Shown one piece after another: positions 25,442 through 49,324 of a DNA stretch of 64,000 nt. Under the pieces are notes generated by a model, which made no database searches, was not told the origin of the DNA, and saw only the letters and a program-made list of their open reading frames with translations. Each line of letters opens with the position of its first letter. The first letter of the stretch is position 1. The translations under genes were made by a program, and so were the position numbers. Origin of the DNA: an uncultured Verrucomicrobiota bacterium (GTDB taxonomy: Bacteria > Verrucomicrobiota > Kiritimatiellia > CAIKKV01 > CAITUY01); assembly GCA_964611575.1 (NCBI GenBank), contig CAZTAJ010000003.1, positions 15,360 through 79,359 of the forward strand, read 5' to 3'.

Positions 25442-25505
25442 AGGGTTCAGGGTTCAGGGTTCAACGAGTTGATGCTGCATCCGTCTTCCTGACACCTGAA
25501 ACCTG
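25442..25505. repeat. Inverted heptamer arrays: (AGGGTTC)3 ... CCTGACA CCTGAAA CCTG
   Basis: Read directly, between pfkB and the dehydrogenase gene. Confidence 0.8.
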
Positions 25506-25541
25506 GTTTTCTCGACCGTCCACAACTCCATCAGGCCAGCA

Positions 25542-26735
25542 TCACCCGCCCGTCCCATCATCCGGCCCGCGCCAGGCGCCTGACGCGAGTCGCACCCAAC
25601 CGGCCCCCGGTGATTCATCGTTGAATCGGGGCCAGCCTGCGGCCTGCCGGGCGGCGACAGCCGTCCACGACGGAACGCCGCTGGTGGCGTCAGCCTGTTC
25701 GACACTGCAGGCGCCCACGGCCACCGCCGCGTTGACGGCCTGTTCCGGCGTCATACCCGCCTGCACGGCCATCAGGAACCCGGCGATCGTACAGTCGCCC
25801 GACCCCGTGGTGCCCACCACCTGTGCCTGGTAGCACGGCGCCAGCAGCCGCCGGCCGAGCCAATCGGGACCCACGCTCCCGCGCCCCATGGCCGCCAGCC
25901 GCTGCCGCGAACGCGTGGTGGCCAGGTAGAAGCCGCGATCGCCCAGCTTGAGACCCACGACCGCCGCGCCCCAGTCGAACAGGCGGCCGGCCAGCGTGTC
26001 CAGCAACGCCGGGTCCGCGCCGGCCACGATCCGCGCGCCGTGCCGGGCCTCGATCTGCTCATAGTGCCGCCGGTCGAGCATGAAGAGCATCTCATCGAAA
26101 CTGGGCAGGAACACATCCACCTGGGGCAGCACCCGCTCCAGCAGCGCCGGCCAGTCGACCCGCCCGGCGGGCGAATCGGGATCCGGTCGCGCCATGTCCA
26201 GCGACGTGGTGACGCCCGCTGCCTTCACGCGCCTGAGCAGCGTTTCCAGTTCCGCGCCGCCTTGCTCGTACATGCGCCGCATGAGCGGCGGGTAACCGAA
26301 ATGCAGGAGTTTCAAATCGCGCAACGCGGCGGCATCGATGTCCTCCGGACCGAAGCTGTCGTTGGCGCCGGGGCAGTGCAGGAACACGCGATCGGTGCCG
26401 GGCGGACTGATCACCACGGTGTAGGAGGTCGGCTCCCGGCCGACGACCAGTCCCGCCGCCAGGCCGGGCCCCGCCTGTTCGAGCAGCCCGCGCACCACGG
26501 CGCCGAGGTGATCGGACCCGGTCTTTCCCATCAGCCGCACGGGCACGCCGAGCCGGTGCAGCGCCAGGCCGGTATTGGAGACCGCGCCGCCGGTGGCCAG
26601 CACGGCGGCGCCCACATCGATCAGTTTGCCGGGAATCAGGAACCGGTCGAGAGGCGTCGCCCCCGTGCCATGAATGGTCGGAATGATGTCGAGACAGATA
26701 TGGCCGGCCACGGCCACGGCAGGATGTGCAGTCAT
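25542..26735 (-). CDS. PfkB-family carbohydrate kinase
   Basis: VAGHICLD, GGAVSNTG, GTTGSGDCTIAGF anion-hole motif. Confidence 0.9.
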   Translation of the reverse strand: MTAHPAVAVAGHICLDIIPTIHGTGATPLDRFLIPGKLIDVGAAVLATGGAVSNTGLALHRLGVPVRLMGKTGSDHLGAVVRGLLEQAGPGLAAGLVVGREPTSYTVVISPPGTDRVFLHCPGANDSFGPEDIDAAALRDLKLLHFGYPPLMRRMYEQGGAELETLLRRVKAAGVTTSLDMARPDPDSPAGRVDWPALLERVLPQVDVFLPSFDEMLFMLDRRHYEQIEARHGARIVAGADPALLDTLAGRLFDWGAAVVGLKLGDRGFYLATTRSRQRLAAMGRGSVGPDWLGRRLLAPCYQAQVVGTTGSGDCTIAGFLMAVQAGMTPEQAVNAAVAVGACSVEQADATSGVPSWTAVAARQAAGWPRFNDESPGAGWVRLASGAWRGPDDGTGG

Positions 26736-26782
26736 AAAGACCTCGCTCGGAAACGGGCCGCACTATGCCACAGCCCCCAAGG

Positions 26783-27205
26783 TCAAGTCGAGCCGATTGG
26801 CGGCGATTCCATGAGCATCCGGGCCATGGAGGTGGCGGAGAGCACGTCACGGATCGACAGCACACTCATGAGCTTCCCACGGTGGACCACCGGCAGGTGG
26901 CGGATGCCGTGCTTCATCATGAGCCCGGCGCAATCGTCCACCGGTTGGTCGGGACGGACCTTGACGATGCGCCGGCTCATGATCGTCCGGACGGGCGTCT
27001 CTTTCGAGGTGCGCCCCTTGAGGATGACCTTGCGGGCGTAATCGCGCTCGGAAACAATGCCCAGCAACCGGCCGTTCTCAACCACCATCAAGGCACCAAC
27101 GTCCGCCGCTTCCATGCGCCGGATGGCCTCAAACACGGTCTCGTCCGGCCCGATGGTGTGGCACGCGCCGCCGATCCGGGTCAACAGGTCATGAATGGTT
27201 TCCAT
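26783..27205 (-). CDS. CBS domain pair protein
   Basis: GIVSERD, IRHLPVV, LSIRD tandem CBS motifs. Confidence 0.92.
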   Translation of the reverse strand: METIHDLLTRIGGACHTIGPDETVFEAIRRMEAADVGALMVVENGRLLGIVSERDYARKVILKGRTSKETPVRTIMSRRIVKVRPDQPVDDCAGLMMKHGIRHLPVVHRGKLMSVLSIRDVLSATSMARMLMESPPIGST

Positions 27206-27216
27206 GATTACGAATC

Positions 27217-27438
27217 CAGAATTCAGTAGTCAGTAGTCAGAAGTCAGATGTCAGAATTCAGAATTCAGAAGCAAACCACACCAGCGGCTACCTGACCGGC
27301 CACGGTGCGCGTCCCCGCATAGCGCGAATTCAAATGACGTCTTTGATCTGACTTCCGTCTCCTGACTTCTGACTTCTGTCTCCTGACATCTGACCTCTGC
27401 CCTCTGCCCTCTGATCTCTGTCCTCTGTCCTCTGCCCT
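27217..27438. repeat. Inverted heptamer arrays: about 8 (CAGnnnT) units and about 13 (CTGnnnn) units
   Basis: CAGAATT CAGTAGT CAGTAGT CAGAAGT... at 27217-27272 and CTGACTT...CTGCCCT at 27348-27438, abutting the hypB stop. Confidence 0.9.
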
Positions 27439-28199
27439 CACCCCGCAAGCTTCTCGAGATACTCGATCCAGGCATCCATGCCCTGGCCGGTCTTGGCGCT
27501 CAATTCGAACACATACACGCCGGGCCGGATTCGCCGCAGGGACTCGCGGCACAGGCTCAGGCTCCAGTCCAGATGCGGCGCCAGGTCCATCTTCGTGAGC
27601 ACCACCACCGGCGCCTGGCTGAAGAGCGTGGGATACTTGACCGGCTTGTCCTCCCCCTCGGTCGTGGAGAGCAGCGCCACCTTGAACGTCTCGCCCAGGT
27701 CGAACGCCGCCGGGCACACGAGATTGCCCACGTTTTCGATGAACAGGAGCTTGACCCCCGCTCCCGCCACCTCGGGCAGCAACTCGCCCACCCGCCTGGC
27801 ATCGAGATGGCACGCGTTTCGGGTTTCGATCTGCCGCACCTCGGCCCCCTTGCCTATCAGGCGCCGTGCATCGTTGTCCGTCCGCTGGTCACCCGTGATG
27901 ACCGCGCACGCCACCCGCCCTCTCAGGCGTTCCAGCGTACGTTCGAGTAAATAGGTTTTGCCGGAGCCGGGCGACGAGATGAGGTTGATCGCGACGATCC
28001 CCCGGGCATTCAGCCAGGACCGATTCTCCTCGGCCTGGGCGTCGTTCTCCGAAAGCACCTTGCGCTCCAGCGTCAGCGTCCGCCGCGTGGGCGTCCCGTG
28101 ATCGTGATCGTGGGGATGATCGTGATCATGGGTGTGCCCAACGCCATGTACATGATCATGATCGTGATCGACATCGCCGCAACCGCAGTCTTTACACAT
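27438..28199 (-). CDS. hypB: Hydrogenase nickel incorporation GTPase HypB
   Basis: MCKDCGC plus His-rich N-terminus, SPGSGKT, ENVGNLVCPAAFDLGE, KYP. Confidence 0.96.
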   Translation of the reverse strand: MCKDCGCGDVDHDHDHVHGVGHTHDHDHPHDHDHGTPTRRTLTLERKVLSENDAQAEENRSWLNARGIVAINLISSPGSGKTYLLERTLERLRGRVACAVITGDQRTDNDARRLIGKGAEVRQIETRNACHLDARRVGELLPEVAGAGVKLLFIENVGNLVCPAAFDLGETFKVALLSTTEGEDKPVKYPTLFSQAPVVVLTKMDLAPHLDWSLSLCRESLRRIRPGVYVFELSAKTGQGMDAWIEYLEKLAG

Positions 28200-28263
28200 G
28201 GTCAGTTTCCCCTCTTCAATCACGGACCGACGATTCCGAAGCGCGATCAAGCGCATCCACTCA

Positions 28264-28313
28264 GGGAGGGACGGCGTGTCGCCGTCCGCGGCGCGCAACA
28301 GGCGCGCCCTCCC
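28264..28313. repeat. 50-bp REP/MITE-like palindromic element, copy 1
   Basis: GGGAGGG...CCCTCCC ends with two internal hairpins; reverse complement is 49/50 identical to 51337-51386. Confidence 0.85.
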
Positions 28314-28366
28314 CTGCGGGAACGGGCAGCAGCCCGTTACTCCAACTTAACGGGTCCTGGCTGAAT

Positions 28367-28738
28367 TCACGGTTCTTCATGCGCCTCTCCCGTCTCCGTT
28401 TCGATCTCGGCGGATCGGATGTAAAGCTCGCGGCCTGCCTCAATCTCGACCTCATGGCTCCCGCAGGCCGCACAGTAAACAAACGGCGCATCCGGGACGG
28501 ACACGTCTCCACAGGCCTTGCACCGCACCGAAGCGGCCACGGACTCCACCTCCAATGCCGACCCCGCGAGCAGGGTTTCTTCCGACGCCAACGGAAACAC
28601 CATGCGAAGCGCTTCGGGATCGACTCCCGAAAGGGCTCCGACCACCACCCGGATCGACAGGACCCGCGTCGCGCCCTGCGCCTTCGCGGCGGCCCCCACC
28701 TGGTCGATCAGCGCCTGGGCTATGGAGAGTTCGTGCAT
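28367..28738 (-). CDS. hypA: Hydrogenase maturation nickel metallochaperone HypA
   Basis: MHELSIA, CKAC/CAAC zinc site, GRELYI. Confidence 0.96.
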   Translation of the reverse strand: MHELSIAQALIDQVGAAAKAQGATRVLSIRVVVGALSGVDPEALRMVFPLASEETLLAGSALEVESVAASVRCKACGDVSVPDAPFVYCAACGSHEVEIEAGRELYIRSAEIETETGEAHEEP

Positions 28739-28755
28739 CGCAGACTCAGGTGGGG

Positions 28756-29005
28756 AGGGTTCGGGGTTCAGGGTTCAGGGTGGCCACCGGCTTGTGGACC
28801 CTATGGATCGGGACAGGGAGAACGAACGCCCAACCCCGCGGGACGCGGGGCAAGCACATATCCCGCCGGAGGCGGGAACCAACGTCTAACGCCGTACGTC
28901 CAAGGGGGAAGTTGCCGCTTTGAGCGTTGGTTGTTGGATGTTGAACGTTGGGCGTTGAGGCTATCTTCTCAGCCCTGAACCCTGAACCCTGAACCCTGAA
29001 CCCTG
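28756..29005. repeat. Composite element: (AGGGTTC)n arm, internal hairpins and (TTGnnnG)n array, (CCCTGAA)4 arm
   Basis: Arms at 28756-28780 and 28973-29005; 7-bp-period TTG array at about 28920-28960. Confidence 0.85.
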
Positions 29006-29020
29006 CGTATTCGCCGTGCA

Positions 29021-30031
29021 TCAGCAGATCCTCGGCAGCAGTTCGCCGCGCGGCACGTCAACCAGGCGCCGGCCGCCCGTAACCGTCTCCAGCCACACCC
29101 GCCCGCCCTGGCGAACGACGCTCCCGATACAGGCGGCACCGCGGCCCTCCTCCATTCCGTGCCAGCAGTGCAGGATGGCCTCCGACACCGATGGCGCGCA
29201 CACCAGCACCATCCGCCCCTCGGAGGCCACGTGCAGCGGGTCGAGCCCCAGCATGTCCGACACGGCCCGCACGGCCGGCGACAACGGGATCGCCGTCTCG
29301 TGCAGCAGAATGCCCAGGGGACGCTCCTCCACGACTTCATTCAGCACAGCCGCCAGCCCCCCGCGCGTCGGGTCGCGCATGAACCGCACGCCGGCCGCCA
29401 GCGGTTCGATGGCCTGGACCAGGCGATGGACCGGCCCCGTGTCGCTGACCGGCCCCTGCGTAATCCCGATCGCCTGCCGCGCCGCCATGACCGCCATGCC
29501 GTGTTCCGCCAGCGGCCCGCTGACCAGCACGCAATCGCCCTCGACGATCCGGTCGGCTCCCAGCGTAAACGCCTCGATCCGCTCGCCGATGCCGGCCGTG
29601 TTGATGTAGAGGCCGTCACATTGCCCGTGCGCCACAACCTTCGTATCGCCGGTGACCACAGCCACCCCGCACGCCGTCGCCGCATCACGCACGGCATCGA
29701 GCACGCGGCGCAGCACATCGAGCGGCAACCCTTCCTCCAGGATCAGCGCGAGCGACAACCAGCGCGGCACGCTGCCGCACACGGCCAGGTCGTTCACCGT
29801 GCCATGCACCGCGAGATCGCCGATGGTGCCGCCGGGAAACTCAAGCGGCTGCACCACGAAACTGTCGGTCGTAAACACGAAGGTGCGACCGCGCGGCACA
29901 GGCAGGGTGGCGCCGTCGGGCAGGCCCCGCAACGGACCGTCGCCAAACCGGCTCACAATCTCGCGCTGGATCAGCTCGCGCGAAAGCCGCCCGCCGCCCC
30001 CATGCGCCAGTTGGATGGTTTCAGTGTTCAT
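29021..30031 (-). CDS. hypE: Hydrogenase expression/formation protein HypE
   Basis: AHGGGG, TTDSFVV, TVNDLA, GDTKVV, MRDPTRGG, C-terminal PRIC; ATGA overlap with hypD. Confidence 0.96.
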   Translation of the reverse strand: MNTETIQLAHGGGGRLSRELIQREIVSRFGDGPLRGLPDGATLPVPRGRTFVFTTDSFVVQPLEFPGGTIGDLAVHGTVNDLAVCGSVPRWLSLALILEEGLPLDVLRRVLDAVRDAATACGVAVVTGDTKVVAHGQCDGLYINTAGIGERIEAFTLGADRIVEGDCVLVSGPLAEHGMAVMAARQAIGITQGPVSDTGPVHRLVQAIEPLAAGVRFMRDPTRGGLAAVLNEVVEERPLGILLHETAIPLSPAVRAVSDMLGLDPLHVASEGRMVLVCAPSVSEAILHCWHGMEEGRGAACIGSVVRQGGRVWLETVTGGRRLVDVPRGELLPRIC

Positions 30032-31125
30032 TCCATGTACTTGAAATACGCCGAGCACGTCCCCTCGGAACTCACCATGCAGGGGCCCACGGGACGATCC
30101 GGCGTGCAGGCGGTCCCGAACAGCGGGCACTCCGGCGGACGCAGTTTTCCCTTGAGCACGTCACCGCAGCGGCAGGCGGGGTTCTCACGCCCCAGCGCCA
30201 CGGTCACGCCGTGCCGACGTTCGGCGTCATACCCGGCCACCGCCTCGCGCAGTCCCAGCCCGCTGGCCGGGATCGTGCCGATTCCCCGCCAGGCCGCGTC
30301 GACCGGTTCCAGGTAACGCGCCATTAACTCCTGCGCGCGGGCGTTGCCACACTGGGTCACGACCCGCGCATACCGGTTATCCACACGCGCCTCGCCCACG
30401 GCAACCTGCTGCAGAATGCCCTCAACGCCGTAGAGAATGTCCAGCGGCTCAAACCCGGCAATCACGCACGGCACGCGGTAGTGTTCCACAAAGGGGAGGT
30501 AGGCGTCAGCCCCTATAATGGCGCTGACATGGGCGGGGCACAGGAACGCATCGATGCGAATCTCGGGATCAGCCAGCAGGGCATGCAGCGCCGGGGGCAC
30601 GAGTTTGAAGGCCGTAAGCAACGAGACGTTGCGCAAGCCGCGTTGCAGGGTGGTGTCGAGCATGCTGATCACCGGCGCGATGGTGGTCTCGAAGCCGATG
30701 GCCAGGAAGACGACCTCGGTGGCGGGCTCCGCCGCCGCCAGCTCGATCGCGCGGGCCGGGCTGTAACACACCTCGATCCGGCCGCCCTTCGAGCGACAGG
30801 CGGCCAGCGTCGTCTCCGAGCCCGGGACGTTCAACATGTCGCCAAACGTCACGACCAAGATGCCGCGGCCGGCAAGTTCGACGGCGGCATCGACATATTG
30901 CGTGGGCGTGACACAGACGGGGCAGCCCGGCCCGCTGATCAGCGTCACGCACCCGGGCAGGACCTGGCGGATGCCGTAACGCGCAATGGCCATGGTATGG
31001 CTGCCGCACACCTCCATGATGGCCACCCGGCGCCCGGCCGCCGTCAACGTCCGGCCGACCTCATCGAGGCGCACACGAATTGCCGCAGCGGCCGCCGGAT
31101 TTCTGAAGCCTTCGATGTATTTCAT
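30028..31125 (-). CDS. hypD: Hydrogenase formation protein HypD
   Basis: MEVCGSHT, GPGCPVC, GFETT, PVGPCMVSSEGTC. Confidence 0.96.
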   Translation of the reverse strand: MKYIEGFRNPAAAAAIRVRLDEVGRTLTAAGRRVAIMEVCGSHTMAIARYGIRQVLPGCVTLISGPGCPVCVTPTQYVDAAVELAGRGILVVTFGDMLNVPGSETTLAACRSKGGRIEVCYSPARAIELAAAEPATEVVFLAIGFETTIAPVISMLDTTLQRGLRNVSLLTAFKLVPPALHALLADPEIRIDAFLCPAHVSAIIGADAYLPFVEHYRVPCVIAGFEPLDILYGVEGILQQVAVGEARVDNRYARVVTQCGNARAQELMARYLEPVDAAWRGIGTIPASGLGLREAVAGYDAERRHGVTVALGRENPACRCGDVLKGKLRPPECPLFGTACTPDRPVGPCMVSSEGTCSAYFKYME

Positions 31126-31337
31126 CGGCTGAGTTCGTCGAATAACTGCAACACGGCATCCGCCTCAGCCTGGTTCATCTTCTCAATGGCATACCCCGCG
31201 TGGACGATGACGTAGGTTCCCAGCATCACGCCCGGCACCAGCGACAGGTCGACCTCATGACGACTGCCGTCCAACTCCGCGACGCCCGTTCCGTCGGCGC
31301 GCAGTTCCACAAGTTTCATCGGTACCGCCAGACACAT
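31122..31337 (-). CDS. hypC: Hydrogenase assembly chaperone HypC
   Basis: MCLAVP, VIVHAGYA. Confidence 0.96.
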   Translation of the reverse strand: MCLAVPMKLVELRADGTGVAELDGSRHEVDLSLVPGVMLGTYVIVHAGYAIEKMNQAEADAVLQLFDELSR

Positions 31338-31341
31338 CGTT

Positions 31342-33672: not shown

Positions 33673-33695
33673 TGCTCAACTCCTCGTGATCACTC

Positions 33696-33842
33696 AGGGT
33701 TCGGGGTTCAGGGTTCAGAAAGAGAGCATGACGAATGTCTGGCCTTTATCGCCATCATAGTCGCAATCCTCATGGGCTGCCCCGTAAATTAGGATCGCGA
33801 TTATGGTTACGATTAGGCCCTGAACCCCGAACCCTGAACCCT
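33696..33842. repeat. Inverted heptamer arms enclosing an inner 6-bp-period (GATTAC-like) inverted array
   Basis: Perfect 18-bp inverted repeat AGGGTTCGGGGTTCAGGG (33696-33713) / CCCTGAACCCCGAACCCT (33818-33835). Interior reads ATCATAGTCGCAATCCTCAT...GGATCGCGATTATGGTTACGATTAG. Confidence 0.85.
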
Positions 33843-33845
33843 CCC

Positions 33846-34556: not shown

Positions 34557-34609
34557 TCATGTTCCCCAATGGCGCTGGCCGTCCTCCCCGGCCACGAACC
34601 CGGCGGCCG

Positions 34610-37699: not shown

Positions 37700-37731
37700 C
37701 TAAGCCCTCTCCTCTTTGACCCTATGCCCTA

Positions 37732-38106: not shown

Positions 38107-38133
38107 GGGACGCCGATTATGAATCCAGAACCT

Positions 38134-41604: not shown

Positions 41605-41834
41605 GACGTGTTCCTCCCCCAGGGTTGTTCCATTCCGGTACGAGATCGGAGTGCTCGCCGTTGCGGAATCGCGTTCAAGGCAACCCGACAAACGCTGCGT
41701 TTTCATCGAGCGAACGGTGCCAAAACAGAACCGGGAACGCAATCCCGATGATGAAGCGTGTCGGTGTCGCCCTTGCCGTACAACTGTGAAAACACACTGA
41801 CGAGTCCATCGCAATCTCGGCATCCGAGGGTCAA

Positions 41835-43838
41835 CTACCACATTACTTCCAACTCGTGCTGCCCGGACGCGGCAATTCGAACCCTGAGGGCCTGCCCATC
41901 GCAACGAAACTCGACCGGCGACCGGTCCACACGCACTTCCTTCGGCGCCCGTTCGCACCAGGCCAGAAACTCGCCGCCATCCCGCAGTTCGATGGCCACC
42001 CAACTGCGCCCGGCACGGAGGGATCGGATCGTTCCGCCGCTGTTGATCTTGTCGGTCAGCCCGATGGGAGCGAATCCGTCAACGATCGGCGCAACGGTAA
42101 ACACCTCGCATCCCAACGGCCCCAGAACGATCGGAGTATCCTCTCCCGCCACCCGCGGAACCAGGGCTCCAGAATGATGCGCATAAACGGCAAACCGGTC
42201 GCCCGAGAGCCCCTCCACATCCGTGGGGCGGATCGCGCCGGCGATCTCCTTCCCCGTATCCGGCGCGTGCAAGTTGAAGGCGCCGATCACCCCCGAGAAT
42301 CCATTCCGGGAAAACACCGTCAGCAGGCACTCATCCCGCGTCGGGTCCAGGAAGAGACATCGCCGCGTCGGACGCGCGGGCCGCAGGGTTCGCGGGACGG
42401 TGCCGTCGGACAGAACGAGTTTCCGCAGGAGCGTAAAATCGTGTGCGTCAGGCTTGTCCGACACATAGACCGGCCCACCCGAAATCGCCCGCGCCGCCGC
42501 GTGAAAAGCGCCGGATGGATGGCCGGACTGAAACATGTCCCAATCCGGGAGGACGAATTCGCCCATCCAGAAACTTGCCAGCGCATTGGCATAGAGGTGT
42601 TTTCCGTGCGAGGACCCATCGTTCGGCGCGAAATCCGTCGAGGACCGGGTCACGGTTGAATTCAGGGCGCTGAAGATCATGTCGTTCGAGCAGGACATGC
42701 AGTTGATGAGCCGCCCGCCGAACTGCGTTTGCGCCGCCCCTTCCAAGGCCGCATGATAAACGCGCATCATCGCCACGCGTCCGCCGCAACCCCTCGCGAT
42801 CACCTCCAGTACGGCCTGGCAATCCACTTTGACCCCGTCCACGCCCTGCAGGCGCAGGTGACGGTGGTAATCCTGGTAGAACCGGAAAATGTCTTCCGGC
42901 GCGACAAGTCCGTTGATATAGATTGCCTGCTTCTGACTTTCGCTCAGAAGCGTCTGCATGCCGGCGGAGAATATCTGGTGAATGTCGCGGACACGGTATT
43001 GCGGAAACGCCGCCGCGGCAACCCCGCCCCAATATCCCAGAAACGCATGCCACACCAGAAACGACCGGACCCCGAACTCCTCGCGCGCCATGCGCACCGT
43101 CGGCCCCAGATCGCCGGGAAACTTCCCGTTCGCGGCGAAGGCCGTCAAACGCGATTCGTCGGTCGGCGACTTGCCGACGGATTGCCAGCCGTCGTCGAGG
43201 ATCAGGAAGGCCGGCTTGACACCTCCGGCCGTGAAACTCTCCAACCCCAGGCGGACCTTGTCGTGGGTAACGTCCTGGTAGAACGCGTCCCACGTGCACC
43301 AGCCGAAGAGGTCGGCGAAATCCGGAACCGGTTTGTCTTCCCGCAGCCGGCCGGTGCGCATGGTCTGCATGACGCTGCGCGCCGCCGCCTCCATCAGCGC
43401 AAAGGGATTCTCGCCCACCGCCACGAACAGGGCGGTCGCCGCGTCGCCGGCCACCGCCGGATCGCCCGTTTCGACCGTCAGGACGAGAACGCCGTCCGAC
43501 CGCCCCTGGAGCGAAGCGCGAAAAGGCCCGTCCAGCAGGGGCAGGAACAGCGCGAACCCGCCCCCGGTCAGTTCGACCAGCAGCGACTGCGTCTCGACCG
43601 GAATCGCCGCCACATCGCGCCCGGCCTTGGCGGACATGAAGAAAAGGCAATGCCGATGGGTGCAGGTGAACCGCTGCCAGTCGCCCGCCCGCCCCACTTC
43701 GAATTCGTGCCGGGCCGCCGGCTTCTCCGCCGCGCACCGGAGAAACACGCCCGTCCCCAAAGGGTCGTCCTGCTGCGAAACCGACGAGGGCAGTCCGAGC
43801 AACACCGTCCTGTCTTTCAAGGTCAAGTCCACACTCAT
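41835..43838 (-). CDS. Raffinose synthase / Sip1-type GH36 alpha-galactosidase
   Basis: FGWCTWDAFY, ILDDGWQ, DGVKVDCQ, RSSTDF, PDWDMFQS, AISGGPVYVSD; GGAGG RBS before ATG 43838. Confidence 0.9.
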   Translation of the reverse strand: MSVDLTLKDRTVLLGLPSSVSQQDDPLGTGVFLRCAAEKPAARHEFEVGRAGDWQRFTCTHRHCLFFMSAKAGRDVAAIPVETQSLLVELTGGGFALFLPLLDGPFRASLQGRSDGVLVLTVETGDPAVAGDAATALFVAVGENPFALMEAAARSVMQTMRTGRLREDKPVPDFADLFGWCTWDAFYQDVTHDKVRLGLESFTAGGVKPAFLILDDGWQSVGKSPTDESRLTAFAANGKFPGDLGPTVRMAREEFGVRSFLVWHAFLGYWGGVAAAAFPQYRVRDIHQIFSAGMQTLLSESQKQAIYINGLVAPEDIFRFYQDYHRHLRLQGVDGVKVDCQAVLEVIARGCGGRVAMMRVYHAALEGAAQTQFGGRLINCMSCSNDMIFSALNSTVTRSSTDFAPNDGSSHGKHLYANALASFWMGEFVLPDWDMFQSGHPSGAFHAAARAISGGPVYVSDKPDAHDFTLLRKLVLSDGTVPRTLRPARPTRRCLFLDPTRDECLLTVFSRNGFSGVIGAFNLHAPDTGKEIAGAIRPTDVEGLSGDRFAVYAHHSGALVPRVAGEDTPIVLGPLGCEVFTVAPIVDGFAPIGLTDKINSGGTIRSLRAGRSWVAIELRDGGEFLAWCERAPKEVRVDRSPVEFRCDGQALRVRIAASGQHELEVMW

Positions 43839-43876
43839 CCTCCCAGGTCTTGCCGACACGGTTCCGCCACGCCGGT

Positions 43877-45049
43877 TCAGCCGCACAATTCGTGGCATCG
43901 TTTGCGATAGTGCAGGTAGCTCCGAAGGGGCACTTCCTCGGGCACCCCATGATCGCAGGTGGGAATAAAGCCGCCTCGGGCGCGCAGCGGCGGGATGATT
44001 CGATCCACCATGCGGTCGATCTCCGCCGGCCCCTGCGCCAGCACGCGCTTGTCGATGCCGCCGGCCATGAACAACCCCGGGAACTCCCGCCCGATCGCGA
44101 CCACGTCGCAGCCCGACGCGACCTCGAACGGGACCATGGCATCCATGCCGATGGCGTCCCGATAGAGAGGAATGACGGGCATCGCGTGGCCGTCGGTGTC
44201 AACCTGGACATACAGGTGGCGAGTTCGATCCAGTTGCCGCCGCCGCACATTTGCGAGGAACTGCTGGTAGTAGGGGAACAGGAACTCCCGCATCATGTCC
44301 GGCGAACACAGCGGCCCATGGTTGTAACAGATATCCTCCGCAAAGAAGACGACGTCAATCGTCACGTGTTCCTGGTGCCGGGCGGTTACGGCATCGGCCA
44401 GTTCGAGCCAGGTTCGCATGCAATCGTGCAGGACCTCCGGCATGTCGTAGAACGCGTAGAACAACGGCTCGGGGCCGATGAGGCTGCGCAGATACATGTA
44501 GCCGCCTATGACCCCTTGCACCATCATGGTGCCGGTGGCCGCGACGGCGCGCGCCTGGCTCATGCGCGCGTCGAAATGCTCCCACCGTTGCGGCGTGGAT
44601 GGGCTCAGGCGCCATTTGCATCGCTCAACCCAGGTCTTCATATCCTTGACGGGATGGTCCAGGTATTCCGGCATGAAACCGTTCCGCCGCCCCTTGAAAA
44701 CCAGCACATGCCGACCGGCGCCGTCCTGAACGACTTCGCAGTCGCCGCGATCCTCAATCGTCAGGGAATCGAAGGCGGGCGAAAAGGCCGCTTCGCACCA
44801 ACCGAGGCCTCCCAGCCCGAAGTCGCCTGGCGGATCATAACCGAACACCTTGGCCAGGTCGGCGTCGCGGGCGAGCCCCTCCTCATACCAGCGCTCCAGG
44901 CAGTAGAAACCGAATTCGCGATGCAAAATCGGCGCCCCCGGAACGCCCGCATAGAGGTCACGCAGTTTCCTCGCCGAAGGCGCCGTCTTCTCGCGGGCAA
45001 CCAGCGCCCGCACTCCGTCATCCGACTTGGTTTCGCACATCTTGTCCAC
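43877..45049 (-). CDS. Uroporphyrinogen decarboxylase (URO-D/MtaA-CmuA) family protein
   Basis: LRSLIGPE, FAEDICYNHGPL.SP, VDTDG, GGIDKR, GFIPTCDH.VP. Confidence 0.85.
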   Translation of the reverse strand: MDKMCETKSDDGVRALVAREKTAPSARKLRDLYAGVPGAPILHREFGFYCLERWYEEGLARDADLAKVFGYDPPGDFGLGGLGWCEAAFSPAFDSLTIEDRGDCEVVQDGAGRHVLVFKGRRNGFMPEYLDHPVKDMKTWVERCKWRLSPSTPQRWEHFDARMSQARAVAATGTMMVQGVIGGYMYLRSLIGPEPLFYAFYDMPEVLHDCMRTWLELADAVTARHQEHVTIDVVFFAEDICYNHGPLCSPDMMREFLFPYYQQFLANVRRRQLDRTRHLYVQVDTDGHAMPVIPLYRDAIGMDAMVPFEVASGCDVVAIGREFPGLFMAGGIDKRVLAQGPAEIDRMVDRIIPPLRARGGFIPTCDHGVPEEVPLRSYLHYRKRCHELCG

Positions 45050-45171
45050 TCTATCCTCCCGCTTTCCAACCCGTTCTTCCATGGAAACACTCGCGCGCGA
45101 TCTCCCCACTCACCCCCCCGCGCCCCATCGGGGTCAGTCGCCCATCGAGACACGCAGGGGTCAAGACACGC

Positions 45172-46292
45172 AGGGGTCAGGCCTTGATTAGCGATTAAGC
45201 ACATAAGGTCTTCCGCAAGGCGGCGTACCGGCGGCGCAGACTCCATCGTGACGCCAGTTCGCCTTCCGCCCCCTTCAGTAAACGCCCCAGCCCCGAACCG
45301 TCTCCCAGGCCGACATGGCGGCCGATATCCCGTTGCGACAACCCCGTCAATTCCTTCAGCAACAATGCCGCCACCAGACGGCCATCGGACAGACTCCTTC
45401 GTTTTCGCAATTCTTCCGCGGCCGTCTTGAAAGCCCGGGCGACCTGGGCCGTCACCTCCGCGGGATCCACGCCCGCTTCCACACGCCGCATCGCCACATC
45501 GACCGACGACCCCGCGCGGCGGCGGCGCTGCCGGTAGTCGCGTTCCACTTGCCGGCAGAACCGCCAACCCCCCACCGCCTTGCTTGACCGTTGCATCGCC
45601 TCCCGCAGGTCTCCGTCATCCTCGGCCAGACCGCTTTCCACGAAAACGCGATACCCCTCCTTGCGTTCCCCTGCGTACCGGCCTGCGAGCGCGCTTAACG
45701 GCCCGACATCCACCCATCCTTCCGGTTTGTGTATGCCGGCATAGCCTCCGTAACTGCTCCACCGGTACGCACGAAGTGCCGTGATCCGCTCCACCAACGG
45801 CCGGTCCCGCACGCCCGCAATCTTCACCGGGTTCAGGTGCACATAGCGCGTCAAAGCCAGAAGGTATTCGTCGCCCGACACCACCTTGGCCTTGTACCGC
45901 CCGCTGAATACGTGCCCCACGCGGTCATGCCGGACATTGTAGTACATGGTGTAGGACGTATTCAACTGCGGCATGAAGGCGGCCAGGTTGGCCCGCGGCG
46001 TCTCCAGCAACAGATGATAGTGGTTGCGCATCACCACGTACGCATACAGTCGGACATGGTGCCGCTCGACGTTCTCGGCCAACTTCTCCACAAACCGACA
46101 CTTGTCCCTATCCAAGGAAAAGATGTCACTCCGCTCGTTCCCTCGCGAAGTCACATGATGAATCGCACCCTCATATTCCAGCCGCAAATGCCGCGCCATC
46201 CCGCACCCTCCTGCCTTCGCCCTACCGCTGACACTAACGCACTCGCACCTCTTCCGTCTACTCGGTTAATCACTAATCAAGGCCTGACCCCT
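45172..46292. mobile_element. RAYT cassette bounded by 27-bp inverted repeats
   Basis: AGGGGTCAGGCCTTGATTAGCGATTAA (45172-45198) vs TTAATCACTAATCAAGGCCTGACCCCT (46266-46292): 26/27 complementary, enclosing one transposase gene. Confidence 0.8.
45195..46199 (-). CDS. REP-associated tyrosine transposase (HUH Y1, IS200-like) with C-terminal DnaA-C-like HTH
   Basis: HHVTSRGN, NHYHLL (HUH), YVHLNPV (catalytic Tyr), YRWSSY, C-terminal LSQRDIGRHVG. Confidence 0.9.
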   Translation of the reverse strand: MARHLRLEYEGAIHHVTSRGNERSDIFSLDRDKCRFVEKLAENVERHHVRLYAYVVMRNHYHLLLETPRANLAAFMPQLNTSYTMYYNVRHDRVGHVFSGRYKAKVVSGDEYLLALTRYVHLNPVKIAGVRDRPLVERITALRAYRWSSYGGYAGIHKPEGWVDVGPLSALAGRYAGERKEGYRVFVESGLAEDDGDLREAMQRSSKAVGGWRFCRQVERDYRQRRRRAGSSVDVAMRRVEAGVDPAEVTAQVARAFKTAAEELRKRRSLSDGRLVAALLLKELTGLSQRDIGRHVGLGDGSGLGRLLKGAEGELASRWSLRRRYAALRKTLCA

Positions 46293-46318
46293 TGGCTTCC
46301 TGACCCCTTGGCTTCCCG

Positions 46319-48448
46319 CTATCTCAAGCGCCCGGCCGGCCGCAACGCCCGCGCACAGCGGTCAGGGCCACATCTCCGCACCGACAGCAGGACCGACCGG
46401 AATGGCTCCGGGGCGGAGACCCCGATGCCGGCCGCCAGAACGCGGCCTGTCGCTTGCCGCTCGCCGCCGTCCATGTCCACCACACCATACGTGGCCCGTT
46501 CGTCCAGACCGCACAGGGCAAACCGTCGGCGGGAGGTGCCTGCGGCGAGGCGGAACGCCAACAGAACGCCGCTATCGCCGTTCTTGGCCACGTGCCACAT
46601 GGCCGCCCAGTCGCCGTCGCCGGTCAGGCAGGGGTGCGCGCCGAGCGCATGGGCCTCGCCGTCCCGCAGAAGGGGGCGTAGTGTCTCTTTGTAGAACGCG
46701 ATGTGCCGGCGCGCCAGATCGCACTCGGCCGCACTCCACCGCTCCAACGGATACCCAAAGCTGATCCCGCCGAGCATCAGCACCCTCAATCGGAAGGCAA
46801 GATCGGGCCGTTCGTCAAAAAGGACCGCTCCCCGCGGGTCTCTCGCCGGCCAGTCCATCTGGAAGGCGTTGCGCTGGAGCGGAAGGCTCATCCTGTGCCG
46901 ACCGAAATGAATGGCCAAGTTCGGCAGCGCCTGGGCGGCATCGGAAAGGGTCATGGTGTGACCTTGAGCGAGAACGGCCTGATCAAACCGTCCCCCGCCC
47001 CCGGCACACATTTCGAGAATCAGTTCCGGGAACCGCTCCCGCAGTTCGGCCTGCAAACGGTAAAGTCCGCGGTAGTGGGCCGCCAGCGGGTCCCTCCGCG
47101 TCAACGCGCGGGGCAGACCGGGAGCCCAGCCGCCCTGGGCCAGCTCTATATTGAAATCCCATTTCATCCAAGTTGCCCGAGTCTGGGCGAGGATGTCGCC
47201 AATCCGGTCCCGCACCCAGGCACGGGCCGCGGGAACGCCGAGGTGCAGCGCCCGCACCCGCCCGCCATACGCCTTGCTGAGGAACCCCGTCTGCGGATGC
47301 AGCCATTCCGGATGGGCCGCGCGCACCCAGGCCGATTCGTCAACCGTTTCAGGCTCGAACCATATCCCGAACTGCAGCCCGAGCCCCCGGCAGTAATCGC
47401 TGAACGCGGTCAAGCCGTCGGGAAACATCGCGGGATTGGGCAGCCAATCGCCGCGGCTGGTCCAGACGCCACCGCCAGCGCCATCGCGTTGCGTGGTGTA
47501 CCACCCGGCATCCAGCATGAAGACTTCCAGTCCTATTTCGGCCGCGCGCCGGGCATGGTCCTTCAGCCGTTCCGACGGTGTCGGCGCCGGGCAGACGCCC
47601 CAACTGCAAAACTGCGTGGGCAACGGACGTCCGGAGTCGCGTCGCGCCGCCCGCAGGGTTTCGTGCAACCGCCCGGTGGCGGCCTCCAGGTCTCCCGGGA
47701 CACACCCCAGCAACGCGCCGGGCAACGCAACAGTCTCGCCGGGCGCCAGGGTCTCGGCCAACCCCCACTCGCTGGGTCCGCCACTGACGTCCACGCATCC
47801 CGTCCCGATCCGGCGCGCGCTCATCTGCCAGTTCCCGCTCCAGTTAAGCATGGCCAAGTACGTATGCCGCGGACTTTCGAGGGCCAGGTAAGGCGCATAG
47901 TCATAGCCCGTCTTGCCATTCCGGCTTTCGAGGACGACCGTCGCCGGCGTCAGGGGCAAACGCTGCGGTTGGGCCTCGCGCCCGTATCCCCCCGCGAGGA
48001 ACAGCAGCGCGCTCACGTCCGCCGGCAGGCGCACGGCAAAGCTCGTCGCGCCCTCAACTGTATGAAGGCCTGCCCGCCCGGTGTGCCTCACCAGGTTGCG
48101 CCGTTCGAGAAAGCCGGTGGCCGGGTCCACCGCGTACGTCAGCCTGGCCTCCAAAGGGTAATCCCGTGCGCGCAGCACGAGTTCGAATCGGGCCGGATCC
48201 GTCCGTGCCCCCTCGGCGCTTTCCCACACCACCATCTCGTCGCGGGTGCCCAGCGATATGGTGGCTTCAGACCGGCTCTGGCACAGGGAGTCCACATGTG
48301 GCGTTTCCGGCACCGTCACGGGTCCCGGCCGTTGCGGCCCGAAATACAACGACTGCAACACACCGCGGAATAGAACGAGGTGCAGTTCGAGGTCCGCCCA
48401 GATCAGTCGCCAGCCGGGGCGGCTCGCATCAAACTCGACGTGCATCAT
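46319..48448 (-). CDS. GH36 alpha-galactosidase (melibiase)
   Basis: FMLDAGWY, FGIWFEPE, WMKWDFN nucleophile, EMCAGGGGRFD. Confidence 0.88.
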   Translation of the reverse strand: MMHVEFDASRPGWRLIWADLELHLVLFRGVLQSLYFGPQRPGPVTVPETPHVDSLCQSRSEATISLGTRDEMVVWESAEGARTDPARFELVLRARDYPLEARLTYAVDPATGFLERRNLVRHTGRAGLHTVEGATSFAVRLPADVSALLFLAGGYGREAQPQRLPLTPATVVLESRNGKTGYDYAPYLALESPRHTYLAMLNWSGNWQMSARRIGTGCVDVSGGPSEWGLAETLAPGETVALPGALLGCVPGDLEAATGRLHETLRAARRDSGRPLPTQFCSWGVCPAPTPSERLKDHARRAAEIGLEVFMLDAGWYTTQRDGAGGGVWTSRGDWLPNPAMFPDGLTAFSDYCRGLGLQFGIWFEPETVDESAWVRAAHPEWLHPQTGFLSKAYGGRVRALHLGVPAARAWVRDRIGDILAQTRATWMKWDFNIELAQGGWAPGLPRALTRRDPLAAHYRGLYRLQAELRERFPELILEMCAGGGGRFDQAVLAQGHTMTLSDAAQALPNLAIHFGRHRMSLPLQRNAFQMDWPARDPRGAVLFDERPDLAFRLRVLMLGGISFGYPLERWSAAECDLARRHIAFYKETLRPLLRDGEAHALGAHPCLTGDGDWAAMWHVAKNGDSGVLLAFRLAAGTSRRRFALCGLDERATYGVVDMDGGERQATGRVLAAGIGVSAPEPFRSVLLSVRRCGPDRCARALRPAGRLR

Positions 48449-48789
48449 GGCATCCCCCTCCTGCCGAATCCGGCTTACCGGTCTCTCCAACTCGCGACGC
48501 GGCCCTCCCTCGCCGCCCGACGCCTTGCCGACATGAATTCAGGCCGCTTCGGGATGCAAACGCTACACTTTCCCCGCGCCGGAACGATACTTCTTTTCCA
48601 TCGCGAGTGACACGCCCGGACGCGCAGGAAGGAGAAGGAGCATCGGAGGGTTAGCGTGTGTGTGATGCGACGATCACGACGAGCCGCTGCCGTTTCGGCA
48701 AGGAAGCCCTGGTTGCGGGTTGACTCCGGCCGGAGGCCGTCCGGTCATCGGCACGGACTCACGGCCTCAGCAGGCGGACCAGCGCTTCG

Positions 48790-49173
48790 CTACTTCCCCA
48801 GCCTGGCTTTGAGGGCGGACAAAAGCACTTGCGGGTTGATCGGTTTCTGGAGCACCCCCGACAGGCCGAGTTGCGAGTAGTCGGTGCTCAGATTCAGGCC
48901 GTCGCCCACGGAACTCAGCATGTAGATGGGCGGCGTCGGTCCCAGCGCCTTGATCTCCTTGACCAGGTTCGTGCCGGAATCGACCTCCTCCATCATCAAG
49001 TCGACGATCACGAGGTCAGGCCGTTCCGCCTTGTACCGCCGCAGCCCTTCCTCGGCGCTGTTAGCCGTGTCGACGATGTAATTGCTGCTCTCGATGATGA
49101 TCTTCATCGAATCCAGAAAATCCTGGTCGTCGTCGACACAGAGTATGACGTGTTTGCCTTTCCTCATGGTCAT
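48790..49173 (-). CDS. Receiver-only (CheY-like) response regulator
   Basis: ILCVDDD, VIVDLMM (phospho-Asp), MLSS, LQKP; no output domain. Confidence 0.9.
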   Translation of the reverse strand: MTMRKGKHVILCVDDDQDFLDSMKIIIESSNYIVDTANSAEEGLRRYKAERPDLVIVDLMMEEVDSGTNLVKEIKALGPTPPIYMLSSVGDGLNLSTDYSQLGLSGVLQKPINPQVLLSALKARLGK

Positions 49174-49241
49174 CGCCTCCTCATCGCTTCGTCTTTACCG
49201 CAGATCCCCGCATCCCGCAACCGGAAACAGCGGAGGGACTT

Positions 49242-49324
49242 AGGGTTCAGGGTTCGGGGTTCAGTACGGAGCAGGCTCCACATCCACGCATTGTTGCGCC
49301 TGAACCCTGATACCCTGAACCCTG
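49242..49324. repeat. Inverted heptamer arms overlapping the hoxW 3' end
   Basis: AGGGTTC AGGGTTC GGGGTTC AG (49242-49264) and CCTGAA CCCTGAT A CCCTGAA CCCTG (49299-49324). Confidence 0.8.

Follow-up and report, generated by a model that had tools for sequence, protein, structure and literature searches.

The window, that is, the whole 64,000-nucleotide stretch of DNA analysed here, carries five loci at which inverted arms of tandem short units face each other and can form long stems. All five sit between or within protein-coding genes and not in a helix of the 23S rRNA, and an ORF of the PF05635 family is absent from each of them. Both reading of the sequence and Tandem Repeats Finder recovered these period-7 loci, which had been described in an earlier note on this DNA. 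The features are as follows.

25442..25506, no strand: locus 1 as a whole, with an AGGGTTC left arm, a 24-nt loop and the right arm CCTGACACCTGAAACCTGG
25442-25463: locus 1, left arm, AGGGTTC x3.1 (Tandem Repeats Finder)
25488-25506: locus 1, right arm, CCTGACACCTGAAACCTGG, a related but distinct unit, the complement of GGTTTCA/GGTGTCA
25542 and 25416: flanks of locus 1, stop of a PfkB-family kinase gene and ATG start of a mannitol-dehydrogenase-like gene
27217..27439, no strand: locus 2 as a whole, flanked by the HypB stop (27438-27440) and the start of a CBS-domain gene (27205)
27217-27271: locus 2, left arm, CAGAAGT x7.9 (Tandem Repeats Finder)
27346-27439: locus 2, right arm, CTGACNT, about 11-13 units (Tandem Repeats Finder and reading)
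28732..28739, no strand: left 8-bp direct repeat of locus 3, CGTGCATC (GATGCACG on the mRNA strand)
28740..29014, no strand: locus 3 as a whole, a 275-bp insert at the HypE|HypA junction
28756-28781: locus 3, outer left arm, GGGTTCR x3.7
~28815-28835 and 28879-28905: locus 3, inner inverted arrays of the CAACGNC type
28925-28957: locus 3, inner array of the GNCGTTG type (CGTTGGA x4.7)
28973-29005: locus 3, outer right arm, CCCTGAA x4.7, 100% matches (Tandem Repeats Finder)
29015..29022, no strand: right 8-bp direct repeat of locus 3, the second copy of CGTGCATC
33694..33842, no strand: locus 4 as a whole, flanked by the stop of an SprT-like gene (33846) and the HypF start (33672)
33694-33718 and 33818-33842: locus 4, arms, TCAGGGT x3.6 and CCCTGAA x3.6
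49242..49324, no strand: locus 5 as a whole, in the 3' end of the hydrogenase maturation protease ORF
49242-49264 and 49299-49324: locus 5, arms, AGGGTTC x3.3 and CCTGAAC x3.6
49261-49800, minus strand: hydrogenase maturation protease ORF, which carries locus 5

The placement at gene junctions, often beside stop codons, that the earlier note had pointed out is borne out in detail. The HypB stop codon directly adjoins locus 2, the HypE stop lies 15 nt from locus 3, and locus 5 encodes about 21 of the last 24 residues of the protease ORF together with its stop codon. Repeats in such genomes can encode ORF tails and linkers, which calls for caution in annotation. The two 8-bp repeats around locus 3 are themselves part of the adjoining genes: the left copy contains the functional HypA start codon, and the right copy overlaps the HypE stop codon (29021-29023) and contains a leftover ATG. 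Nested arrays were likewise found as described, in the form of GTTG/CAAC heptamers in locus 3 and of 'GATTAC-like' hexamers (ATCNTA type) in the 99-nt loop of locus 4, where the inverted hexamer arrays pair with each other in the predicted fold.

All five loci are missing from the matching junctions of G001, the one genome of the same genus that was compared. At the junction of locus 1 the G001 genes share an ATGA overlap, and at that of locus 2 HypB and the CBS-domain gene are separated by 7 nt only (ggtcgct). HypE and HypA are overlapping or directly adjacent (TGATG, 3-nt spacing) in G001 as well as in G003, G008 and G021, which represent three other genera of the family. The SprT-like gene and HypF of G001 are joined by ATGAaccacGTG, and at the site of locus 5 the protease ORF continues up to an ATGA overlap with a response-regulator gene, with no element in either place. 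The element is also absent in G001 from two more junctions, both on contig C23 of the window's genome, and the G001 site matching a C23 cassette with a four-helix-bundle gene, described below, holds a lone (GGGTTCA)2.4 only. Since the elements are absent and the genes in G001 overlap or lie 7 nt apart, the comparison argues that the five loci are insertions at tight stop/start junctions, with the direction of gain, not loss, fixed by outgroups only at HypE|HypA.

The 275-bp insert at HypE|HypA is flanked by the perfect 8-bp direct repeat GATGCACG, which is present as a single copy in G001. A target duplication of this kind can leave both a stop and a start codon intact. At the other loci, 5 consecutive bases of the 8 are shared at loci 1 and 4 and none at loci 2 and 5, so that a clean 8-bp duplication is seen at one of the five loci. 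Genome-wide, direct repeats of at least 8 nt flank three array pairs, against about 1.2 expected, and two of these three derive from flanking hairpins. Repeats of at least 7 nt flank 11 pairs, against about 4 expected, a weak excess; nested hairpins or duplicated ribosome-site/ATG contexts account for several of them. Outer terminal repeats beyond the heptamer arms could not be defined in this genome; the arms themselves are the inverted repeats.

Few unexplained intergenic repeats of bacteria are commoner than tandem heptamers. In the assembly that contains the window (4.8 Mb, PVC group, 88.7% complete), 521 period-7 runs were found, compared with 34 in shuffled sequence and 47 runs of period 8. 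The excess is thus specific to period 7. The genome has about 450 period-7 arrays; 451 were scored for G-quadruplex (G4) motifs. Inverted pairs number 75, 61 of them with the G-rich arm in front. The rule of CAG in the left and CTG in the right arm, as proposed in the earlier note, fits 44 of the 75 pairs and is not general; G-rich-first describes the family better. Among neighbouring arrays of the GGGTTCA type the order is G to C 28 times and C to G once. Pairing and arm order are therefore strongly non-random, which speaks against random orientation and simple unpaired slippage. An assembly artefact was rejected as well, as the arrays lie inside long contigs with orthologous flanks and the same architecture recurs in independent MAGs. 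With rough gene calls, 55% of the arrays are intergenic compared with 11.6% of random positions, and same-direction, convergent and divergent junctions are hit in proportion to their numbers, with no preference for positions within operons. A three-frame stop (TGA every 7 nt) was considered as a common trait of the 3' arm and discarded after a check by eye, as it fits CTGA-bearing units only; the TAGGCTG/GAAGGCT families have stops in the 5' arm, and several other units have none.

The way in which arms and loops vary bears on how the arrays arose. Pairs that share their arms have, for the most part, unrelated loops, and loop sharing is limited to a few small groups, which is unlike a simple family of copied miniature elements. 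In four paralogous in-frame copies, all units of the two arms have gone from GGGTTCA to GTGTTCA. This joint rewriting shows slippage and arm-to-arm correction, and together with the variable number of units (3 to 10 or more) and the lack of target duplications at most elements it would fit an origin on the spot, in which replication slippage builds an array and a fold-back template switch copies the inverted arm, with no transposition involved. We nevertheless regard such an origin as improbable. The ATGA and TGATG junctions offer no spacer, yet the inserts add 25-200 nt of new loop DNA; dozens of loci, and cassettes of other phyla, have in common a particular 24-nt arm without strict periodicity, GGGTTCAGGGTTCGGGGTTCAGG; and the HypE|HypA insert carries its 8-bp duplication.

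PF05635 is a large family whose function is, to our knowledge, known only in diversity-generating retroelements. The same GGGTTCA/TGAACCC arms as in the window surround a PF05635 gene on another contig (C23:23760-24478), and inverted tandem arrays bracket all seven strong PF05635 genes of the genome, with a unit of its own at each gene. The association of heptamer arrays with four-helix-bundle genes, which the earlier note had brought up, is thereby confirmed. Units shared between a PF05635 gene and empty copies in this genome are GGGTTCA, CAGAGGT, CAACGCC/GGATGTT, AAATCCG and AAACCCG; families with no matching PF05635 gene in the assembly are ACAGCCT (28), AAGGCTG (18), AAGTCAG/AATTCAG (31) and ACCTCCC (34). 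A search with the C23 protein returned 72 loci, and all but 4 of the 51 that were typed have arms. On a tree of 52 proteins from several phyla (the 51 typed loci and the C23 protein), the unit label changes 9 times, compared with 19.2 times after shuffling, and none of 200 shuffles matched this value. From phylum to phylum, a protein clade keeps its arm unit. Furthermore, the arm GAGGGTTCAGGGTTCGGGGTTCAGG is nearly unchanged across phyla while the cassette proteins share only 80-89% identity. The loops of the empty hairpins do not look like decayed four-helix-bundle genes: tblastn with 5 protein queries against 45 loops gave nothing below E = 0.07. The proposal of the earlier note that the loci are remnants of a mobile element thus holds as far as insertion is concerned, given their absence from G001, and is not supported as to decayed gene copies.

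We consider it probable that the five loci belong, as members without a gene, to a genome-wide set of inserted palindromic elements with period-7 stems, the same stems that enclose PF05635 genes. Their stem units include GGGTTCA, CAGAAGT and others, nesting is frequent, and the elements entered or adjoin tight stop/start junctions of same-direction genes. A relative that can transpose is found in the long-read MAG CAVUUJ01, which contains at least 12 near-identical copies of a 661-bp cassette with terminal inverted repeats of about 25 nt; of 8 simple copies, 7 are bounded by perfect 8-bp target duplications. The actual ends of the cassette are found some 65 nt beyond the heptamer arms. The gene-plus-arms module can hence ride within a unit that has terminal inverted repeats and makes 8-bp target duplications, and the kinship with mobile DNA suspected in the earlier note stands in this respect. 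The ISL3 family generates 8-bp target duplications, and the CAVUUJ01 genome has one ISL3-family transposase gene with terminal repeats that resemble those of the cassette. The cassette is like ISL3 MITEs in its GG-starting terminal inverted repeats, its 8-bp duplications, its many copies and the lack of a transposase of its own, but unlike them it carries a passenger gene with internal heptamer stems; in the genome of the window, the empty-hairpin loops differ from MITEs in not being copies of one another.

The palindromic elements of this genome would have been placed by a trans-acting transposase making staggered 8-bp cuts, and at HypE|HypA the duplication would have been retained, preserving the upstream stop and the downstream start. 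After insertion, the arrays would evolve in concert, both arms being rewritten together and the loops drifting or being exchanged. No transposase could be tied to the heptamer elements in this genome. The CAVUUJ01 terminal repeats have scattered, unpaired, chance-level matches only, and neither an ISL3 transposase nor a reverse transcriptase (RVT_1) was found in the 88.7% complete assembly; a reverse-transcriptase or telomerase-like origin of the G-first arm order was rejected for lack of an RVT_1 match.

The genome does have 13 Y1_Tnp matches, one of them in the window (45195-46199), so that REP/REPIN-like elements, moved as single-stranded hairpins by Y1 (RAYT-like) tyrosine transposases, were considered. 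HUH transposition acts on hairpins and makes no target duplication, consistent with most of the loci. Tandem repeats with periods of 12-24 nt occur near four Y1 genes, and two of these genes (in the window and on contig C9) have inverted arrays on both sides, in parallel to the heptamer arms. However, a location among heptamer arrays is seen for just 1 of the 13, in an array-dense region, and one more has a single array about 300 nt upstream; no Y1 gene was seen flanked by heptamer arms, the layout that defines a REP-RAYT system. Elsewhere in the genome the inverted repeat and 16-mers of the window's RAYT gene do not recur, and the 8-bp duplications at HypE|HypA and around the CAVUUJ01 cassette are not products of HUH transposition. 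With the Y1 genes not linked to the heptamers, they were rejected as the mobilising enzymes, and we hold this explanation to be very improbable.

Because the palindromic elements lie inside operons, they are probably co-transcribed with the flanking genes and fold as long RNA hairpins. Predicted folding energies are -27.9 kcal/mol (z -1.9) for locus 1, -101.9 kcal/mol (z -6.1) for locus 2 (246 nt), -136.4 kcal/mol (z -5.7) for locus 3 (301 nt), -83.2 kcal/mol (z -6.5) for locus 4 and -60.8 kcal/mol (z -5.5) for locus 5. The modelling gives strong indications of very stable RNA hairpins at four of the five loci (z -5.5 to -6.5); locus 1 is the weakest, with its weak fold score and a right arm of a different unit. 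A tuning of hyp/hox transcripts, raised in the earlier note, would be a candidate role of the hairpins. Such hairpins would break translational coupling, and by analogy with the homologous stems of 23S rRNA intervening sequences they could serve as RNase III sites or as stabilising hairpins. An intrinsic (Rho-independent) terminator was rejected, as a T-run after the 3' arm on the mRNA strand is missing at all five loci. Neither the window nor two further stretches rich in arrays gave an Rfam match.

G-quadruplexes, which the earlier note had suggested for the telomere-like arrays, are possible at individual loci: five G3 tracts lie at 28973-29005 on the mRNA strand, and four or more occur in some arms of loci 3, 4 and 5, though not in locus 2. 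The suggestion does not extend to the class. A canonical G4 motif is present in 87 of 451 arrays (19%), and 61 of the 87 belong to the GGGTTCA family. Judged from these motifs, G-quadruplex potential is mainly a property of one unit family.

These properties could also be those of selected regulatory elements. The arrays would then be binding sites (RNA or ssDNA) of the matching four-helix-bundle pentamer, and/or processing hairpins or G4s that set relative cistron expression, and empty hairpins would be trans targets of the protein gene with the same unit. Such a role would explain why protein clade predicts arm unit, why GAGGGTTCAGGGTTCGGGGTTCAGG is almost constant in different phyla although the cassette proteins are only 80-89% identical, and why pairing survives the unit change in the four paralogues. 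Moreover, a PF05635 gene with the matching unit is present for several families with empty copies, and similar G-rich heptamers of Xanthomonas and Nostoc form G4 in vitro (Rehm et al. 2015, PMC4692102). On the other hand, the agreement of unit and clade follows from joint inheritance of arm and gene as one mobile element, with no need for binding, and repair between the arms of a palindrome can maintain pairing without selection. The large ACAGCCT, AAGGCTG, AAGTCAG/AATTCAG and ACCTCCC families have no matching gene in the assembly, and G4 formation is possible in only 19% of arrays. In addition, four of the same junctions hold quite different units or nothing in the sister species, which speaks against a sequence-specific function conserved at any one gene. 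Selected regulation is therefore a rather unlikely explanation, and by default the inserted palindromic elements may be read as mostly tolerated selfish DNA.

Parts of this picture are already in print, namely heptamer inverted pairs in Xanthomonas and Geobacter and the intervening sequences of 23S rRNA; in the literature searched, neither a link between heptamer hairpins and four-helix-bundle cassettes nor evidence of insertion was found. The heptamers GGGAATC and GGGGAYT of Xanthomonas and Nostoc have a G3 tract and about 4 units, are spread genome-wide with intergenic enrichment, and form 70-75 convergent pairs per genome with the G-rich arm first (Rehm et al. 2015, PMC4692102). They lie near stop or start codons, in species-dependent copy number but at a constant type of site, and they were viewed as G4-forming simple repeats without a tie to mobile elements (Rehm et al. 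2015). The family of the window agrees with them in its period of 7, its three or more units, its convergent G-first pairs and its intergenic position near stop and start codons. It differs in that most of its unit families are unable to form G4, its arms are common to four-helix-bundle gene cassettes, and its sites are empty in the sister species.

The 23S rRNA intervening sequences of Coxiella burnetii and Leptospira contain an S23p/PF05635 ORF in a long inverted-repeat stem that is cut by RNase III, with GACAGAT heptamers beside the ORF in strain-variable number, and their mobile origin has been discussed (Warrier et al. 2016, PMC4990558). Unlike these elements, the five loci of the window lack an ORF and lie in or between protein genes instead of in rRNA.

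It is conceivable, if speculative, that PF05635 (Avd-like) proteins and heptamer arrays form one protein-and-repeat system, in which each clade would recognise its own 7-nt unit (RNA or ssDNA), the gene would travel between its own arrays, gene-less hairpins would be trans targets or offspring, and arms would be rewritten in concert. If so, the unexplained heptamers reported from Xanthomonas, Geobacter, cyanobacteria and Beggiatoaceae would, like the 23S rRNA intervening sequences, be forms of one widespread element, and mobility might be borrowed from any transposase at hand, as the ISL3-like ends in CAVUUJ01 would illustrate. The genome offers a compact case that brings together operon-junction insertions, stems that enclose four-helix-bundle genes, a unit that follows the clade and a transposable sister cassette. 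A vague annotation as 'simple repeat or G4' can thus give way to testable hypotheses on binding of the unit by the protein, mobilisation in trans and RNA processing at the stems.

Two further heptamer groups share features with the arrays. Geobacter metallireducens has families of four or five tandem heptamers, GGACCGG and MTYCTGA, the former between and within genes and the latter drawn as strand-switching pairs; they were annotated as putative binding sites of a global regulator, with no link to four-helix-bundle genes or insertion (Aklujkar et al. 2009, PMC2700814). Locus 2 of the window has arms (CTGACTT/CTGAATT) that match the MTYCTGA unit. TAACTGA direct repeats are abundant intergenic heptamers just upstream of start codons in Beggiatoaceae, cyanobacteria and Bacteroidetes, and their patchy spread across phyla suggests horizontal transfer (MacGregor 2015, PMC4679880). 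A role in translation was proposed for them, and only 1 indirect repeat was noted among 170 sets (MacGregor 2015). Whereas TAACTGA repeats are thus almost always direct, the arrays studied here are inverted; a CTGA core is common to the arms described here, the TAACTGA repeats and the STRR heptamers of cyanobacteria.

Sequence inspection and Tandem Repeats Finder bear out the five loci as the earlier note had described them, with a period of 7 at all. Every gene of this stretch is carried on the minus strand, the order being MFS transporter, mannitol-dehydrogenase-like gene, PfkB kinase, CBS-domain gene, HypB, HypA, HypE, HypD and HypF, followed by a SprT-like gene, glycosidases, a Y1/RAYT-like transposase, a response regulator, a hydrogenase maturation protease and the NiFe hydrogenase large subunit.

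Period-7 arrays of the five loci (Tandem Repeats Finder), their gene setting (minus strand) and predicted folds of the mRNA strand
Locus 1: 25442-25463; junction of PfkB and mannitol dehydrogenase; z -1.9
Locus 2: 27217-27271 and 27346-27439; junction of HypB and CBS, array adjoining the HypB stop codon; -101.9 kcal/mol, z -6.1
Locus 3: 28756-28781, 28925-28957 and 28973-29005; junction of HypE and HypA; -136.4 kcal/mol, z -5.7
Locus 4: 33694-33718 and 33818-33842; junction of SprT and HypF; -83.2 kcal/mol, z -6.5
Locus 5: 49242-49264 and 49299-49324; within the 3' end of the hydrogenase maturation protease ORF; -60.8 kcal/mol, z -5.5

The left and right arms, said to be inverted throughout, are reverse complements at loci 2-5, where very stable hairpins are predicted on the mRNA (minus) strand, but locus 1 departs from this in part: its right arm (25488-25506) complements GGTTTCA/GGTGTCA units, not GGGTTCA, and its predicted hairpin is weak. 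The nested arrays were recovered as CAACGNC/GNCGTTG heptamers within locus 3 and ATCNTA-type hexamers within locus 4, the latter base-pairing together in the predicted fold. Since a U-run after the 3' arm is absent at all five, the loci are not intrinsic terminators. No Rfam family matched the window or two further array-rich stretches.

Comparison with relatives shows the elements to be inserts at closely packed gene junctions. The same-genus comparison rests on one genome, G001, whose HypD is 86% identical to that of the window; after it, the HypD comparison ranks Victivallales, Kiritimatiellae and Verrucomicrobia MAGs nearest, which places the window's genome in a PVC-group lineage. The presence/absence check proposed in the earlier note found gene order kept around each junction in G001 and the element absent at all five. 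In G001, the PfkB and mannitol-dehydrogenase genes overlap (ATGA), 7 nt separate HypB from the CBS gene, HypE and HypA overlap (TGATG), ATGAaccacGTG joins SprT and HypF, and at locus 5 the protease ORF continues into an ATGA overlap with the response-regulator gene. The HypE-HypA spacing is 3 nt also in three other genera of the family, so the empty state is ancestral at this junction. Two further empty hairpins (arms and loop without a gene) on contig C23 occupy junctions that are ATGA overlaps in G001, and where the same contig has a cassette, a four-helix-bundle (PF05635) gene between GGGTTCA arms, a lone (GGGTTCA)2.4 is all that G001 has. On contig C1, four junctions hold a hairpin in both genomes, with markedly different unit families (for example GGGTTCA versus TAGGCTG in G001, and AATCTCC versus GGTGGAA in G001), and G001 has an array upstream of HypE where HypD and HypE overlap in the window's genome; turnover is therefore rapid and goes both ways. 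In two cases, locus 5 and C23:13302, the insertion fell short of the upstream stop by a few codons, and the protein tail and stop codon are now encoded by the element.

The HypE/HypA insert of 275 bp (28740-29014) lies between perfect 8-bp direct repeats, GATGCACG on the mRNA strand, which G001 carries in single copy. In the mRNA sense, the left copy supplies the HypE stop and the right copy the HypA start, and insertion at a staggered cut would therefore of itself leave the two genes intact. The match is just five consecutive bases at loci 1 and 4 (ATGGA and CGAGG at the corresponding positions), no flanking direct repeat is seen at loci 2 and 5, and there is no clear genome-wide excess of 8-bp repeats flanking elements.

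Two other differences and likenesses between the genomes were seen. About 2.7 kb, with an 805-aa ORF in G001, lie between HypB and HypA in G001 (L001:4065-6482, contig C208) and in the further genomes G003 and G007; the window's genome lacks this stretch and has a gap of 68 nt. A ~200-nt sequence is present in at least two copies in the window's genome (C23:25412-25607 and C1:106791-107012; L012:12913-13108 and L013:7692-7913 in the extracted stretches) and on five G001 contigs at 77-89% identity; no Rfam family matches it, and it could represent either a small conserved RNA or a miniature mobile element.

The elements are probably transcribed with the flanking genes and then folded in the mRNA, where a hairpin would break the translational coupling of these genes. 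It might also provide sites for RNase III or serve as a stabilising hairpin, by analogy with the Coxiella intervening sequence, in which a PF05635 ORF beside tandem heptamers lies inside an RNase III-cut stem (PMC4990558).

The five loci belong to a genome-wide family. The assembly (4.77 Mb, 319 contigs, 63.6% G+C, 88.7% complete) holds 521 period-7 runs, compared to 34 in shuffled sequence and 47 runs of period 8, and the commonest unit, AACCCTG (= GGGTTCA), forms 101 arrays, all array counts being lower bounds; ACCTCCC, ACAGCCT, ACCTCTG, AAGGCTG, AAGTCAG and AATTCAG are also common. Long (GGGTTCA)n arrays form the ends of several contigs (among them C16:1-56, C39:1-56 and the end of C77), so some arrays are longer or more numerous than short-read assembly resolves. 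Judged by our approximate gene calls, 55% of arrays fall between genes, compared to 11.6% of random positions, and same-direction, convergent and divergent junctions are occupied roughly in proportion to their abundance. With inverted pairs defined by units matching within one base, 75 were found, the G-rich arm coming first in 61; among neighbouring GGGTTCA-type arrays the G-then-C order occurs 28 times and the opposite order once. As an inverted pair reads identically on either strand, the handedness is genuine, and it would be expected from copies of one element or from end-directed synthesis. Many arms are not free-running repeats, a specific 24-mer, GGGTTCAGGGTTCGGGGTTCAGG, and its complement being shared between them; the loops that they enclose mostly show no relation to one another. 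A canonical G4 motif occurs in 87 of 451 arrays, 61 of them in the GGGTTCA family, and G-quadruplex potential therefore marks one unit family, not the whole class. A subfamily with TAGGCTG arms and a conserved loop bears a further short hairpin, GGCGTCCC-NNN-GGGACGCC, beyond each arm and is present at differing sites in both genus genomes (C5:25215-25400 and C30:34550-34740; G001 C190, about 19730-19880).

How arms change can be followed in four paralogous ORFs (~1200-1600 aa) that carry one in-frame hairpin at the same place (C90:15303-15407, C104:2983-3079, C89:13205-13310 and C132:2477-2596), translated as a linker such as QGPGFRVQG...TLNPEPRTLNP. Homology extends over both flanks and some of the loop, and the hairpin therefore predates the gene duplications. 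The arms are GGGTTCA/TGAACCC in two copies and GTGTTCA/TGAACAC in the other two, the same position being altered in every unit of both arms, with four stem pairs changed on both sides and none broken at those positions. The arrays were therefore rewritten as wholes with the arms kept complementary, which could reflect selection on the hairpin or arm-to-arm repair within the palindrome; either fits.

The tie between heptamer arrays and four-helix-bundle genes, brought up in the earlier note, proved correct. The window's genome has 10 PF05635 matches in 9 genes, eight of the matches being in seven strong-match genes, and all seven of these genes lie between inverted tandem arrays, each with its own unit.

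Units flanking the strong PF05635 genes, by contig
C23: GGGTTCA
C33: CAGAGGT
C72: CGGATTT
C112: CGGGTTT
C74: the 8-mer GGAGTGAT
C70: CAACGCC/GGATGTT, C-rich arm first
C213: a 27-mer

The C23 arms are exactly those of loci 3, 4 and 5, and the inner pair of locus 3 matches the C70 unit and its C-first order. A scan of species-representative genomes gave 72 loci with relatives of the C23 protein, in Verrucomicrobiota, Kiritimatiellota, Lentisphaerota, Planctomycetota and other MAGs; arms were typed at 51, and all but 4 of these have heptamer arms. GGGTTCA is the unit at most loci with roughly 70% protein identity or more, and a sister clade on a supported branch has GGTTTCA, GGTGTCA or GTGTTCA. 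On a tree of 52 proteins (the 51 typed and the C23 protein), unit labels change 9 times compared to 19.2 when shuffled, a value matched by none of 200 shuffles. This shows that the arm unit follows the protein clade, arm and protein being inherited together.

These relatives are stronger evidence on how elements are placed than the flanking repeats in the window's genome. CAVUUJ01, a long-read MAG, has at least 12 near-identical copies of a sister cassette, each simple copy being 661 bp with terminal inverted repeats of ~25 nt (GGYTCTKTCGCGA...) located ~65 nt outside the heptamer arms, and seven of eight simple copies have perfect 8-bp target duplications, showing that this cassette has transposed. 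In this cassette the heptamer arms lie internally and do not form the termini. The single ISL3-family transposase gene of CAVUUJ01 has ends, GGTTCCTCGCTACTTTCAGTGGCT, that match the cassette ends at ~18 of 23 positions with one gap allowed per side; ISL3 elements make 8-bp duplications and their ends begin with GG. A gene-plus-arms module can therefore ride on borrowed transposon ends. In four stretches (L049, L051, L060 and L072) the 661-bp cassette is directly followed by a partial copy that begins exactly at the left heptamer arm, without the outer 64 nt, and the arm therefore acts as a joint for recombination or one-ended transposition.

Repeats of this kind have been published before, and the five loci add new members. 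In Xanthomonas and Nostoc, G-rich heptamers lie near stop and start codons, with 70-75 convergent pairs per genome (an order equal to the G-first order here), and were not tied to mobile elements or any protein (Rehm et al., PMC4692102). The Geobacter metallireducens genome has families of four or five tandem heptamers, its MTYCTGA sites, which share the unit of locus 2, being drawn as strand-switching pairs (PMC2700814), and TAACTGA direct repeats occur in Beggiatoaceae (MacGregor, PMC4679880). A full-text search by family names found no paper tying the PF05635 family to genome-wide heptamer arrays; the cassette link, filled and empty sites, target duplications and concerted unit switch go beyond what we could find in print.

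A transposase acting in trans may have placed the elements. In the 88.7%-complete assembly of the window's genome, no ISL3 transposase, reverse transcriptase or copy of the CAVUUJ01 cassette termini was found, and the 13 Y1 transposase genes show no link to heptamers. The HypE/HypA duplication is the only direct clue to the placing enzyme there. The RAYT-like gene (45195-46199, minus strand; Y1_Tnp and DnaA C-terminal helix-turn-helix, 334 aa) itself lies between 26-bp inverted repeats, GGGGTCAGGCCTTGATTAG[C/T]GATTAA (region 45130-46316), with 16-bp units outside them, (AGACACGCAGGGGTCA)x2 at 45148-45179 and (CCTGACCCCTTGGCTT)x2 at 46283-46316; repeats and units are found nowhere else in the genome, and in G001 the gene is represented by paralogues alone, located elsewhere. 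Other Y1/DnaA_C transposase genes lie near tandem repeats of 12-24-nt period (C9:39263-40772, C15:15666-15712, C303:213-240 and 1528-1635). The C9 gene has such tandem repeats on both sides in inverted order, G-rich first, (GGTGACCGTTGGGGT)x3 and (CCCCACTGGCGCCAC)x6, a layout that parallels the four-helix-bundle gene between its heptamer arms.
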